Positions 22,891-33,273 of a DNA stretch of 33,274 nt are shown here, piece after piece; the stretch's first letter is position 1; each line of letters starts with the position of its first letter. This DNA comes from Verrucomicrobiota bacterium. GTDB lineage: Bacteria; Verrucomicrobiota; Verrucomicrobiia; Verrucomicrobiales; DEV007. The notes under the pieces were generated by a model, which was not told the DNA's origin, did not search any database, and saw nothing but the letters and a program-made list of their open reading frames with translations. The DNA lies in NCBI GenBank assembly GCA_045046875.1, contig JASFYY010000106.1, positions 1-33,274 on the forward strand, in the 5' to 3' direction. Made by a program: the position numbers and the translations under genes.

Positions 22891-23778
22891 TCAGAGCCAG
22901 CCTAGGCTTTCTAAAAAACGGGTTACTTTTTTTAAAGTGTCCTTGTGATCCTTACGGCTTCCGGGGCCGTAGTAAAATTCGTGCCCCCGGGCAGAATAGG
23001 TGTGATAAGTGATCTTCCCGGAATCGAGTGATTTGGCTTTTTCTACAAAAGCAGTAACTGACTGCGCAGGCACTACGGGGTCCGCCAAACCCTGAAAAAT
23101 CACCGTCGGTGGCAAAGCCCGCGAAAGCTGCTGATAAGGTGATATCTTCAGCAAACGAATCATTTCATCTTCGCTGACTCGCTTGCGAATTTGCGGGATA
23201 TCCATATCCACAACCGGATTGAACAAAATCAAGGCCGCGGGTCTGGCGCTGATGGCTACAGCATCCGTTGCCTCATTCGCGTCGCTGAATACCTCACAGG
23301 CAAGCGCTAAATGACCACCGGAAGACCCTCCTGCTGCTGCGATTTTGTCTTCATCAATGCCCAGTTCATCCGCATGAGTTTTCAACCACCGCATCGCCGA
23401 ACGCGCATCCTCGACACTTTCAAAAGGACTGCTGCCATGTCGACTCTCCACGCGATAATCGGCCACTATCGATACCAGCCCTCGTTTGGCGAAATATTTT
23501 GACTGCGAGACGAACTGTTGCGGACTGCCCACTTTCCATCCACCTCCGTAAAATCACAGCACACAAGGACGAGCGTCACTGGGCTTCCAGCCCTTGGGTT
23601 TATAAATCCATAGTGCCAATTCCACTCCATCAATCAATTTATAGACCTGCCTCTCTGCCCCGCTCCTCGCTGATCGCCCCAGCATGACAGACAAAAGCCC
23701 CGCCAAAACCCCGCCGATCAAGACCACGAAAAACAAACCTTTGAGCAAATCCTTCAAGTTTCTTTTTTTTGTTTTCAT
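22891..23778 (-). pseudogene. Alpha/beta hydrolase (esterase/lipase-like) interrupted by one in-frame TGA at 23554-23556
   Basis: The ORFs 23554..23820 and 22891..23532 share a frame: ...YKPKGWKPSDARPCVL*FYGGGWKVGS... Nucleophile GGSSGG, Asp in GLADPVV, His in RGHEF, N-terminal membrane anchor. Confidence 0.85.
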
Positions 23779-23826
23779 GCCAAAATTGACGCCGCGCCTC
23801 AATTTCATTATGGTCAGCACATTTCT

Positions 23827-25944: not shown

Positions 25945-26403
25945 TCAACCCGCTCCACTCAAGGTGATCTGAGCTTTGGCCACCACTGCTCCCTCACTCC
26001 CTTCCGAATTGAGCAAGCACACCTGCCCCTCAGCCTGAATCAGTCCCCCCATCCTCGCAGTGATCTCAACCCTGATCATCAACTGATCACCTGGTCGTGC
26101 CGCGGAAAAAATCTTTGCCTGCCTCACCGCCGCCAGACGCAAATTAATAGCCGCCGCAAAATCCCCCTGCTGAGCCGCTACTCCCGCCAGTTGAGCAATA
26201 GCTTCCACCAAAATCACCCCAGGCATCATCGGATCCCCCGGAAAATGGGCCGCAAGAAAACTCTCCGTGCCTTTGATCAAATAAAGCGCCCGCGCCGACG
26301 CACCCGGCTGCCATTCGATCAACTCATCCACAAAACGGAATGCCTCGCCATGAGGCAAGGATTCCAAGGCCTTTGTTAAGTCCACACTCATCGCTGATAA
26401 CAT
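25945..26403 (-). CDS. FabZ/FabA-like 3-hydroxyacyl-ACP dehydratase (hot-dog fold)
   Basis: LPHGEAFRFVD and AHFPGDPMMPGVILVEAIAQ (catalytic His/Glu), PGD. Confidence 0.85.
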   Translation of the reverse strand: MLSAMSVDLTKALESLPHGEAFRFVDELIEWQPGASARALYLIKGTESFLAAHFPGDPMMPGVILVEAIAQLAGVAAQQGDFAAAINLRLAAVRQAKIFSAARPGDQLMIRVEITARMGGLIQAEGQVCLLNSEGSEGAVVAKAQITLSGAG

Positions 26404-26553: not shown

Positions 26554-26680
26554 AAAAAAACCGACGCCCCGGATAAATCCGAGACGCCGGCGGTATCACA
26601 CCCCTTTCACTAGGTCAGGGGCTGTCTGGTCTTGCTTTCACTGATTCTCCCGAGCAGCTCAAGCAGTTTCCAGGTGAATT
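26554..26680 (-). ncRNA. Structured repeat unit C (93-nt core 26588-26680 plus intrinsic terminator 26554-26590), family unassigned
   Basis: Homologous to units A and B. Terminator CCGGCGTCTCGGA-ttta-TCCGGGGCGTCGG-TTTTTTT; its G-U wobbles only work on the minus strand. Confidence 0.6.
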
Positions 26681-26748
26681 TTTATCGTCCTTGTTTTTTA
26701 TAACGAAATTTTTCTTGTAATCCCTGTTGAATTTTTATTACTTTGTTA

Positions 26749-26911
26749 GAAAAGAAACCGATGATCTTGAAGATCGTCTGTTAGGAACTTTTTTTCATAA
26801 AGAAAAACTCCAAGACATCGGCGGTATCACACCCTATCCACTAGGTCAAGGGCTGGCGGAACTTGCCTTCACTGATTCTCCCAAACAGCTCAGGGCGGTC
26901 CCAGGTGAATT
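26749..26911 (-). ncRNA. Structured repeat unit B (93-nt core 26819-26911 plus terminator 26749-26821), family unassigned
   Basis: Hand count 77/93 identical to unit C. Terminator arms CCGATGTCTTG / CAAGATCATCGG followed by TTTCTTTTC. Confidence 0.55.
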
Positions 26912-26953
26912 GTTTTACATAAGTTGTTATTGTTAAAGTTAGTTACGTTTTTC

Positions 26954-27114
26954 AAAAAGGAGCCGACGCCTTGAAATTCTCCCTTCGGGTATTTTATATT
27001 ATTAAAATATCCCAAGGCGTCGGCAGTATCACACCCCCTTCACAAGGTCGGGGGCTATCTGGTCACTGCTTTCACTGATTCTCCCGGTCAGGTTAAGCAG
27101 TTTCCAGGTGAATT
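26954..27114 (-). ncRNA. Structured repeat unit A (94-nt core 27021-27114 plus terminator 26954-27024), overlapping the 3' end of the 152-aa ORF
   Basis: Hand count 10 mismatches plus 1 indel versus unit C. Perfect 12-bp arms GCCGACGCCTTG / CAAGGCGTCGGC followed by TCCTTTTT. Confidence 0.55.
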
Positions 27115-27487
27115 GATTGCCATACTTACCGTATTGGCTTAAAAATTCTCGCGCAGGTAAACCTGCATTTGTCACAACTTCTAAAATTTCCGTAGAGGTC
27201 ACCGGCACTTCGATCAACTCTCGCCCCGGTAAACTGGAGGCACTGACCGCAAAAGCCAAAGTAAACATCAAACAGTGGCTCATCGCCAAATCCCTCTTAC
27301 TCATGCCTTCGAAATCTGATGCTTCCTCACCGAATTGACCCTTCGCCCAAGACAGATCGGCCGCACTTTGCTCATAGATCAGACGCAAATCCTCGGGGTA
27401 AGTCGAGATAGTCGCTTCCAACCTGGCCAGCATGGACTCGAGCGTATTCTGGTTTTGAGTAGAGATTTCTAGTGCGGCAGCAGTCAT
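27029..27487 (-). CDS. Hypothetical protein (152 aa); the last ~28 codons lie inside repeat unit A
   Basis: ATG ORF preceded by an AT-rich leader and co-oriented with the 95-aa ORF. No motif recognised. Confidence 0.55.
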   Translation of the reverse strand: MTAAALEISTQNQNTLESMLARLEATISTYPEDLRLIYEQSAADLSWAKGQFGEEASDFEGMSKRDLAMSHCLMFTLAFAVSASSLPGRELIEVPVTSTEILEVVTNAGLPAREFLSQYGKYGNQFTWKLLNLTGRISESSDQIAPDLVKGV

Positions 27488-27528: not shown

Positions 27529-27816
27529 TTATTGGGAATTGGGTAGATGCACCACCGAAATCACCGGCAGTTGCAAATCATAAAGTGTGTTTAAAACTCC
27601 AGACAAGGCGGCTTGATCCGCCAGAGATCCGGTGAGGACCGTCATCGCCGTCTCCACTGTGGTTTCGAGCTGCATCCCTCCCAATTTTTCAGACCAACTG
27701 TTGTCGAGATTTCCTCGCACTCGAATCTGATAAACGGCAGGACCCGCCATGGTCAAACCGGGAAACTTCTCAGGCTTCTCCAATTCTGGGATTTTCATAA
27801 TGTTGCTCTCTGTCAT
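27529..27816 (-). CDS. Small conserved hypothetical protein (YxIRVRGxL...W...DQAALxGVL type)
   Basis: YQIRVRGNLDNSWS and TVLTGSLADQAALSGVLNTLYDLQLPVISV match a recurrent uncharacterised family, recalled from memory. Confidence 0.75.
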   Translation of the reverse strand: MTESNIMKIPELEKPEKFPGLTMAGPAVYQIRVRGNLDNSWSEKLGGMQLETTVETAMTVLTGSLADQAALSGVLNTLYDLQLPVISVVHLPNSQ

Positions 27817-27952
27817 GGTGTTACTACAATGACCCTCTTTTCAGGGGTACACATCAGCCCAAAGGGTACAAAGTGGGGTGTAGATGAAAAAAAAAGGCTG
27901 CGCAATTCTTGCTCTTTTTGCGCTCAAATCCCCACCCGACAAGGATTTAAGT

Positions 27953-28462
27953 TCAATTCAGGTAAATCCGCTGGGTCACCTCGCTGAGAAACTTTTCTGT
28001 GCAAGCCAACAAAGTGGAGCCAGCAGCGAACTTAATCGGGGCATTTCCCGCTAATTGACGATTATTGCTACCCGTATAGGACAACAACCTTTTCCTGTCC
28101 TTGTTGCTGATCCCACTGAACAAACCCGTGACCAGGTAAACCGGCTGCCCTGCGCTCCCGTGCCCCATTTTGGATTCCACCACGATGACTTCCAAACTGA
28201 TAAAAACGCTACTGCGCTGCCCCACCGACCCGGGCGAAGATAATTCGACACCCTGCGGAAGCTTTTCCTGACTGCCGTCGCAGTGAAGATGAAAGCCCAG
28301 CACAATCGTCGAACCCACCTCGAAACCACACAACATCTCCATCACCAAACCATGGTCATCCATCGCAGCTATATTCAAAAGCGGACAAGCAGGCGCCACG
28401 GCAGCCTTGTTCAGGGTATCCTGAGCAGGAAAAAAGGGGGTATTTTGCTTCTGGAACTTCAT
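27953..28462 (-). CDS. Hypothetical protein, possibly a degenerate PilZ-like beta-barrel
   Basis: Pattern HGLVME..FEVGSTIVL...LEVIVVE...YLVTGLFSGISNKDRKRL; no RxxxR motif. Confidence 0.5.
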   Translation of the reverse strand: MKFQKQNTPFFPAQDTLNKAAVAPACPLLNIAAMDDHGLVMEMLCGFEVGSTIVLGFHLHCDGSQEKLPQGVELSSPGSVGQRSSVFISLEVIVVESKMGHGSAGQPVYLVTGLFSGISNKDRKRLLSYTGSNNRQLAGNAPIKFAAGSTLLACTEKFLSEVTQRIYLN

Positions 28463-28628
28463 TTTTGCAAGGACTCCAGTCTTGAGATAAATTTACCCGC
28501 TGCACAAATTCTGTCAAATCATCCCTCCCAGCCCCGCAAGTAATAAGGCCAACAATGAAGCCGCTTAGCAAATAAATTGAATTTAGTCGGGCTTTGTGGC
28601 AGAACTTGAAGCTCTCCAAGCACAAGTT

Positions 28629-29558
28629 ATGCATATCACCGACATTTTTTCCAATCGCCGCACGACGATTTCATTCGAATTTTTTCCACCGAAAAGCAAC
28701 ACCGGCTGGGAAAACCTCTATCGGACCATCCGCGACCTCGAACCCCTCAAGCCGTCTTTTGTCAGCATCACCTATGGCGCCGGTGGATCCACCCGCGAGC
28801 CCACTCACGACCTGGTGGTGCGCATCAAAAACACCACTTCGCTCGACCCGGTGCCGCATCTCACTTGTGTCTGTCACAGCGAAGAAGAAATCGATTCCAT
28901 CCTCACCCGTTATGCCGAAGCCGGAGTCAGTAACATTCTTGCCCTCGGCGGAGACCCTCCGCGAAATCTCGAAAACTATGATCGTTCCAAAGATGCCTTC
29001 CAACACGGCAAGGATCTGGTTGCCCACATCAAACGTTTTAATCAAAGTGGCCAACACTCCGATACCCGCGGTTTCGGAATAGGAGTCGCCGGTTTTCCCG
29101 AAGGCCACCCTACCACTCCTAATCGCCTGCAGGAAATGGACCACCTCAAAATGAAAGTCGACGAAGGCGCCGATTATATCATCACCCAGTTGTTTTTTGA
29201 AAACCGCGCCCTGCTCGATTTCCGCGACCGCTGCGAACTCGCCGGCATCACCATCCCCATCATCGCCGGCATCATGCCGATCACCTCCGCCAAAGGCATG
29301 AGACGCATGGCCGACTTTGCCGCCGGTACCAACTTCCCCGCACGCCTACTGCGCGCCATCAATCGCGCTGGCGACGACAGCGAGGCCGCTGAACGCATCG
29401 GCATCAGCTACGCCACCGAGCAGTGCCTCGACCTACTCGAGAACGAAGTCAGCGGCATCCACATGTACACCCTGAACAAATCCAAGGCTACTCGCGAGAT
29501 ATACGCCAACCTCGGTTTGCGCGATACCTCCAGTTTGGGAAACAGAATTCAGGAGTAA
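28629..29558 (+). CDS. metF: 5,10-methylenetetrahydrofolate reductase
   Basis: ISFEFFPPK, FVSITYGAGGST, PHLTC, GFPEGHP, GADYIITQLFF, IIAGIMPI and HMYTLNK motifs. Start at MHITD (28629). Confidence 0.95.
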   Translation: MHITDIFSNRRTTISFEFFPPKSNTGWENLYRTIRDLEPLKPSFVSITYGAGGSTREPTHDLVVRIKNTTSLDPVPHLTCVCHSEEEIDSILTRYAEAGVSNILALGGDPPRNLENYDRSKDAFQHGKDLVAHIKRFNQSGQHSDTRGFGIGVAGFPEGHPTTPNRLQEMDHLKMKVDEGADYIITQLFFENRALLDFRDRCELAGITIPIIAGIMPITSAKGMRRMADFAAGTNFPARLLRAINRAGDDSEAAERIGISYATEQCLDLLENEVSGIHMYTLNKSKATREIYANLGLRDTSSLGNRIQE

Positions 29559-33191: not shown

Positions 33192-33273
33192 GGGTAGGTA
33201 CCGAAGCGGTCAAACGGGGCAGACTGTAAATCTGCTGGCTCAGCCTTCGAAGGTTCGAATCCTTCCCTGCCCA
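33192..33273 (+). tRNA. tRNA-Tyr (GTA)
   Basis: Acceptor stem GGGTAGG/CCTGCCC, anticodon arm GCAGA-CTGTAAA-TCTGC, long variable arm, T arm GAAGG-TTCGAAT-CCTTC, discriminator A. The window ends one base later. Confidence 0.97.

Follow-up and report, generated by a model that had tools for sequence, protein, structure and literature searches.

An uncatalogued structured RNA in the coding tail of an orphan gene, with tandem non-coding copies, in one genus of Verrucomicrobiales

The locus lies on the minus strand of the window, that is, of the whole 33,274-nt stretch of DNA analysed, in a source genome (G000) of 5.59 Mb that is 94.7% complete, and all units are read on that strand. From upstream to downstream, the following features were found:

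27845..27886, minus strand: conserved upstream motif (CATCTACACCC...TGTACCC...GATG), containing TACACCC/TGTACCC repeats and having CATC...GATG at its ends
27529..27816, minus strand: small hypothetical gene, 95 aa, upstream of the orphan gene with a gap of 41 nt
27029..27487, minus strand: orphan gene (P0001), 152 aa, all-helical, hosting unit A; its last ~20 residues form a low-confidence tail
27021..27114, minus strand: unit A, a three-way-junction RNA that overlies the last 28 codons and stop of the orphan gene
26962..27024, minus strand: terminator-like hairpin A, beginning 4 nt past the stop codon; tail TCCTTTTTG
26912..26961, minus strand: U-tract and A-rich spacer 1, 50 nt, 24% GC
26819..26911, minus strand: unit B, a non-coding, more diverged copy with a 1-nt deletion and a re-paired lower stem
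26757..26822, minus strand: terminator-like hairpin B
26681..26756, minus strand: U-tract and A-rich spacer 2, 76 nt, 24% GC
26588..26680, minus strand: unit C, a non-coding copy, 93/93 identical in G005
26560..26591, minus strand: terminator C, 14 bp, then a U-tract
25945..26403, minus strand: fabZ-like dehydratase gene, downstream of the units

The original prediction had placed three copies of a structured RNA on the minus strand at these positions and spacings, and this was borne out, the offsets being 202-203 nt from A to B and 231 nt from B to C and the likeness lying far beyond chance, as an nhmmer profile of the three units recovered them at E values of about 1e-26 to 1e-28, with the next match in the genome at E 0.25. 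Pairwise identities are 83/94 (A/C), 77/93 (B/C) and 69/94 (A/B), where about 83-88% identity to unit C had been counted by hand, and the 1-nt indel said to separate B and C from A was confirmed as a deletion in B and C. The ascription of a terminator to every unit holds as well, each being followed by a stable hairpin (-28.8, -23.5 and -24.3 kcal/mol behind A, B and C respectively) and a T-rich tail with 6-7 T in the next 9 nt; a simple terminator scan flagged C alone, A and B being absent from it probably because of their long loops. The arms of these terminators vary in concert, for example in the extra copies G002_x1 and G003_2, in line with the covariation reported for them. The spacers, on the other hand, had been called unrelated and are weakly related instead (A-B versus B-C, z 3.1; B-C versus a spacer of G001, z 5.2); across loci they measure 45-78 nt at 20-32% GC, are A-rich and are weakly alike. 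A promoter scan returned 4 sites against 2.3 expected.

All six other loci that extend far enough have the 95-aa gene upstream of the orphan gene, a paralog of which intervenes in L024, and the 95-aa and orphan genes probably form one operon. The 95-aa protein matched no Pfam (E 0.1) or NCBIfam family, resembles, in a feature comparison, unnamed clusters from Chloroflexota and other groups (score 0.90-0.91) and may adopt an ACT-like fold. The exact 11-nt start of the upstream motif recurs in six of nine loci; this start is absent in G004, L005 and L023 end before it, and a fuzzy scan of G000 gave no convincing second copy. This motif, which is assumed here to be of LuxR/NarL-type likeness, is likely a promoter or regulator site of the operon. 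On the other side of the units, the fabZ-like gene follows directly in G000, G005, G002, G004, L023 and L024 (L025 ends too early), and between the RNA copies and fabZ stand one other gene in G003 and several in G001. Constant across the loci are the upstream motif, the 95-aa gene, the orphan gene and the unit or units.

The intervening gene of G003 (L029, 7015-8010) encodes 331 aa and is L,D-transpeptidase-like by eye, and the stretch between the RNA copies and fabZ in G001 (L027, 6863-11012) holds what are taken, by eye, to be an IS21-type helper fragment and roadblock-, globin- and hemerythrin-like genes, with a presumed nickel superoxide dismutase-like gene upstream. A 169-aa orphan gene (27953-28462, minus strand), divergent from metF (MTHFR; 28596-29558, plus strand), is found upstream of the cassette in G000, G004, G005 and L025. 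Elsewhere in the window, an alpha/beta hydrolase gene (22891-23820, minus strand) appears split into frames of 88 and 213 aa where G005 has a single frame of 305 aa, which reflects either a frameshift or an assembly error, and the only tRNA, tRNA-Tyr(GTA) at 33192-33273 on the plus strand, sits at the very end of the contig about 6 kb from the units.

The open reading frame at 27029-27487 terminates within unit A, to which it contributes its last 28 codons and stop, and the stop codon itself (UGA, 27029-27031) sits on the 3' side of P1, the closing stem. Within the genus, the orphan protein is present in 5/5 other genomes, although G002, which is 73% complete, shows copies only, its contig stopping before the gene. 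It was found in 0/55 other genomes with a single query and in 0/128 other genomes of the family with a profile, and twelve database proteins match it, query included, under source names or record titles of Verrucomicrobiales or Verrucomicrobiota. Searches gave no Pfam (E 0.1), NCBIfam or PADLOC family for the protein, one of 15 alignment members matching PDC-S06 at E 0.075, and likeness to any RNA-binding family was not found. The predicted model is a helical bundle with a mean pLDDT of 77 and values below 50 for residues 142-152; neither Foldseek (best E 0.49), VIA (helical bundles, best Z 7.3, rmsd 4.8, 122 aligned) nor ESM Atlas gave a clear fold match.

Distant relatives of the protein end in a hydrophobic stretch at the position of its tail, read by eye as a putative membrane anchor. 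A paralog lies directly upstream of the orphan gene in L024 (616-1086; hhalign 98.3%, aligned to about residue 133), and positions 1-167 of L023 hold the end of a paralog with a hydrophobic C-terminus, also directly upstream of the orphan gene. A tblastn search of G000 that used related proteins did not find an anchored paralog, nor did the DNA profile find an RNA unit in the L024 paralog. Since the relatives and the paralog end in a hydrophobic stretch instead, the 5' part of the RNA would be old coding sequence, and the tail would have been reshaped.

The fold was examined over 17 units in nine loci, 16 of which were aligned (G005_C, identical to C, was left out). The tested fold is the minimum-energy fold of unit A, with which RNAalifold largely agrees, and is a three-way junction in which P1 closes the structure, P2 is the long stem and P3 is a short one bearing an 11-nt loop. 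P2 carries two purine-rich internal loops, which are alike (in G001_A, GAAA stands opposite UGAC at each), and an apical loop containing GGGAG; the conserved letters concentrate in the loops and junctions of this compact fold, the loop types being GGGAG (apical) and GACCUnGUGRA. Over the 16 copies, 90.1% of 395 cells are paired and two-sided changes occur at 9/25 pairs, among them the U-A to C-G change that had been noted in the long stem of B and was located at pair 23-49. No shuffle out of 500 scored as high and slid controls pair at 33-47%, kinship among the sequences inflating this control. In a kinship-reduced test on disjoint pairs of existing copies, which used 12 of the 16, the three non-coding pairs yielded 6 two-sided changes where 1.5 would be expected (p 0.002), and the three gene-copy pairs 4 where 0.95 would be (p 0.009). 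In L025, the synonymous changes ACC to ACT and CAG to CAA re-form one pair. The minus strand is favoured as the RNA, as G-U cells (24, in 11 pairs) exceed A-C cells (6, in 2 pairs). On the opposing side, the plus strand of unit A folds equally well (-36.1 kcal/mol), no two-sided change was seen in P1 among the 16 copies, most single copies have modest folding z-scores, and unit B alone misses the consensus fold (z +0.46), as does G005_B. At the level of compared sequences, the pairing counts show the fold to be under nucleotide-level selection in the gene and in the non-coding copies.

Codon usage in the gene end was compared over seven gene lineages, G005 being omitted because it nearly duplicates G000. 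Where two lineages share a residue, its codon was identical in 501/1236 cases in the gene body, 144/316 in the 20 codons preceding the unit and 325/400 in the unit (pairwise counts, which are non-independent), and invariant residues were written with a single codon in 2/27 body columns and 7/12 unit columns. The invariant run CTG ACC GGG AGA ATC includes GGG, which makes up 19% of Gly codons in the long frames of G000, and AGA, which makes up 6% of Arg codons. The same codon constraint is seen in the single-copy lineages G004, L023 and L024, and as these have no extra copy before fabZ, conversion from copies is not its cause. Comparative evidence of this kind shows selection acting on the nucleotides of the unit. 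The earlier claim that conservation is not at the protein level needs correction for unit A, which lies inside a conserved protein-coding gene; that of an RNA under structural selection with no match in Rfam is supported by the codon bias, the pairing over 16 copies and the non-coding pair test.

Gene and RNA strictly co-occur in 6/6 genomes of one genus of Verrucomicrobiales and were found nowhere else. A covariance model (R1), of the kind that had been proposed, finds homologs in this one genus: it scores 77-119 bits in the genus genomes, which are the genomes from which it was built, and in G000 it matches the three units only. The three matches of 22-23 bits among 128 other genomes of the family look like chance, 150 genomes of the order and 150 of the phylum gave nothing outside the genus, viral contigs gave 1 and 12 pattern matches with a best R1 score of 13 bits, and blastn against phages and plasmids gave nothing at E 1. 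Rfam 15 at the gathering threshold returned only the tRNA at 33192-33273 in the window and no family for the units; six matches below threshold (E 1.3-6.8, 14-19 bits) lay mostly on spacers and terminators. A dispersed MITE or REP-like element, raised beforehand as a refuting possibility, is ruled out by a single locus in each of the six genomes, the terminator-arm pattern recurring at only two other places in G000. T-box, hammerhead, FMN, PyrR, RAT and integron attC candidates were dropped by eye against their consensus motifs, Rfam agreeing where they are represented. The literature listings searched showed no paper on this RNA and no such RNA in the phylum; the supplementary motif lists of comparative-genomics screens could contain it. 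The unit is an uncatalogued RNA family, absent from Rfam and of narrow range.

Units number three in G000, G005 and G003, two in G001, at least two in G002 and one in G004; G004, L023 and L024 have the gene-embedded copy only. Units B and C are non-coding copies that derive from the end and terminator of the orphan gene. The candidate ncRNA array proposed beforehand is not a free-standing row of three equal RNA genes, the first unit being a coding gene end from which the others derive and the number of copies ranging from 1 to 3. In the frame of the gene, five of the seven extra copies carry a frameshift or an early stop and two are open up to the stop, and changes in the extra copies lean to third codon positions (46 versus 30 and 30). 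Summed over the seven, 150 pairs are kept versus 136.8 and two-sided changes number 10 versus 2.3; the signal comes from G002_x1, G002_x2 and G003_2 (36 differences from its own gene, 23/25 pairs kept), G000_B, G000_C, G001_2 and G003_3 being singly non-significant. Extra copies are about as close to their own gene (0.753) as to the genes of other species (0.759), and they diverge faster between species (0.734) than the gene copies do (0.82). Five of the seven share CTC in the apical loop, most carry loop letters absent from every gene copy, and unit B has TTT where every gene copy has ACC; a tree of the 16 units is mostly without resolution. Being no nearer to their own gene and sharing loop letters, the extra copies would be old duplications kept by selection. 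No conserved short peptide was seen by eye in other frames of the copies, since the AUG or ACG found 9-10 nt before most units opens different frames of different lengths and B has AUG-UAA.

The reading preferred here, at a rough probability of 0.45, is that of a protein-binding RNA whose dose would be raised by its tandem copies. This reading is favoured because conservation lies in the loops of a compact fold, no long seed is present, neither Hfq nor CsrA was matched in 5/5 genomes tested, a conserved antiterminator overlapping the aptamer was not seen under equilibrium folding, and gene and RNA co-occur. The structured RNA would have arisen within the last 28 codons of the orphan gene and been amplified by tandem duplication of gene end, terminator and spacer together. 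Transcription of the operon would start from the upstream motif, and a ribosome that has reached the stop codon, within P1 and 4 nt ahead of terminator A, would weaken that terminator and let RNA polymerase read through into B and C. In E. coli, terminators a few bp past a stop codon are reported to be almost fully repressed (PMC4824070). Terminator B would let little read-through reach C, unless C is served by a promoter of its own, and internal promoters in the AT-rich spacers may be an alternative source of B and C. Cleavage in the A-rich spacers would then release units of about 125-165 nt, acting as a protein ligand or decoy with no base-pairing action, and the extra copies would increase the ratio of this RNA to the mRNA. 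As its partner, the protein of the same orphan gene would be the first candidate.

Other explanations account for part of these observations. The unit might be a cis-acting module at the 3' end of the mRNA, involved in stability or translation termination, with copies that are back-up terminators or slowly decaying duplicates with inherited pairing, though this is unlikely: three lineages are single-copy, terminator A is badly placed directly behind the stop so that back-ups could be favoured, and the extra copies diverge faster and retain a third-position bias. Back-up termination, however, would not preserve the junction upstream of each terminator, and the two-sided changes between non-coding copies, including those of G003_2, speak against mere decay. 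Base-pairing sibling sRNAs from the mRNA 3' end, with the apical GGGAG or the P3 loop as seed, are also unlikely. Tandem siblings behind a small gene have a precedent in CcsR1-4 (PMC8034643), and the apical and P3 loops are both conserved in sequence; on the other hand, the apical loop is Shine-Dalgarno-like in sense and not anti-SD as in CcsR, a long single-stranded seed is lacking, no genome of the five has an Hfq match, and the longest matches elsewhere in the genome, whether exact (16 nt) or with gaps or mismatches (up to 29 nt), all have an E of at least 0.34.

A row of riboswitches or attenuators, with one terminator apiece, that control the downstream fabZ-like gene would fit the compact junction with a terminator immediately after it, the direct adjacency of fabZ in the six genomes and loci listed above and a small alternative hairpin over the stop codon and terminator base in the G003_2 fold. 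This explanation is quite improbable: P1 shares no nucleotides with the terminator, in 17/17 units it costs 11-20 kcal/mol to block the terminator under equilibrium folding, back-pairing of the 5' arm in truncated transcripts gains 0-5.1 kcal/mol with no common pattern (9/16 units), G001 and G003 keep 2-3 copies despite genes intervening before fabZ, and no Rfam riboswitch matches. Elements acting at the DNA level, whether cassettes swapping the C-terminus, template and variable repeats of a diversity-generating retroelement (DGR) or attachment-site scars, are highly improbable, even though the copies duplicate the gene 3' end, two extra copies stay in frame and the spot accepts differing cargo genes. 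For a DGR, the 11 mismatches between units A and C show no adenine specificity (2 or 3 have an A, counted by eye) and no reverse transcriptase (RVT_1) match was found in G000 or G001, those of G003, G004 and G005 being on other contigs. Moreover, no copy stands at the far cargo end in G001 or G003, five of the seven copies are out of frame, and the G-U bias favours one strand. No unit-swapping joint was seen in 4 DNA runs (contigs of one study, close strains) apart from two one-contig joints, which look like a relative's unit mapped to two copies.

Returning to the protein-binding RNA, a more specific version of it is unlikely: a formerly membrane-anchored protein would have lost its C-terminal anchor, its last codons becoming an RNA that binds or neutralises the protein, with the tandem freed copies supplying surplus RNA and the ribosome at the stop melting the RNA and opening terminator A, so that translation would set the amount of partner RNA. 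If it is true that the RNA binds its own protein, the locus would be a new RNA-controlled module. In any case, one genus shows stages in the birth of a non-coding RNA, from RNA-less relatives through overprinted genes to genomes with one or two freed copies, and the origin of a small RNA from coding sequence becomes testable by comparison, with a reach limited to one uncultured genus.

Several known systems share parts of this arrangement. With TnpB, the RNA partner of the protein (omega RNA or reRNA) overlaps the 3' end of its own coding sequence, and unit A likewise overlaps the 3' end of a coding sequence; unlike TnpB, there is here no nuclease fold, transposon ends or variable guide, and a terminator follows the unit. 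In the RtT/tyrT repeats, tandem units copy the end and terminator of the host gene. In E. coli, RtT RNA is released from behind a gene (PMC4986893). The host of RtT is, however, a tRNA operon, whereas here it is a protein gene with the nearest tRNA of the window about 6 kb off, and the Rfam scan gave no match to RtT. Antitoxins of type III toxin-antitoxin systems and of AbiF (RCd22) also have repeated structured RNA motifs beside a gene, and the RNA neutralises the protein by direct binding (bioRxiv 10.1101/2025.04.15.648962). Here, in contrast, the RNA overlaps and follows the gene 3' end, and no ToxN, AbiQ, CptN, TenpN or Abi_2 toxin was matched by the orphan protein in Pfam, NCBIfam or PADLOC.

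The ccaF1-CcsR1-4 locus of Rhodobacter sphaeroides, a gene for a DUF1127 protein followed by cuckoo sRNAs, has the same succession of a small gene and tandem homologous structured RNAs, and its RNAs are bound by the protein and released by RNase E (PMC8034643). The CcsR RNAs are located in the 3' UTR, their loops are CCUCCUCCC, and a single terminator is shown at the end (PMC8034643), whereas the present locus has a coding first copy, one terminator per copy and a three-way-junction fold, neither the 152-aa nor the 95-aa protein matches DUF1127, and the loops are of the GGGAG and GACCUnGUGRA types. Taken together, the locus, which lacks the defining features tested of each of these closest systems, resembles a gene-tail RNA array and looks like a small RNA that was born in the tail of a gene and then multiplied.
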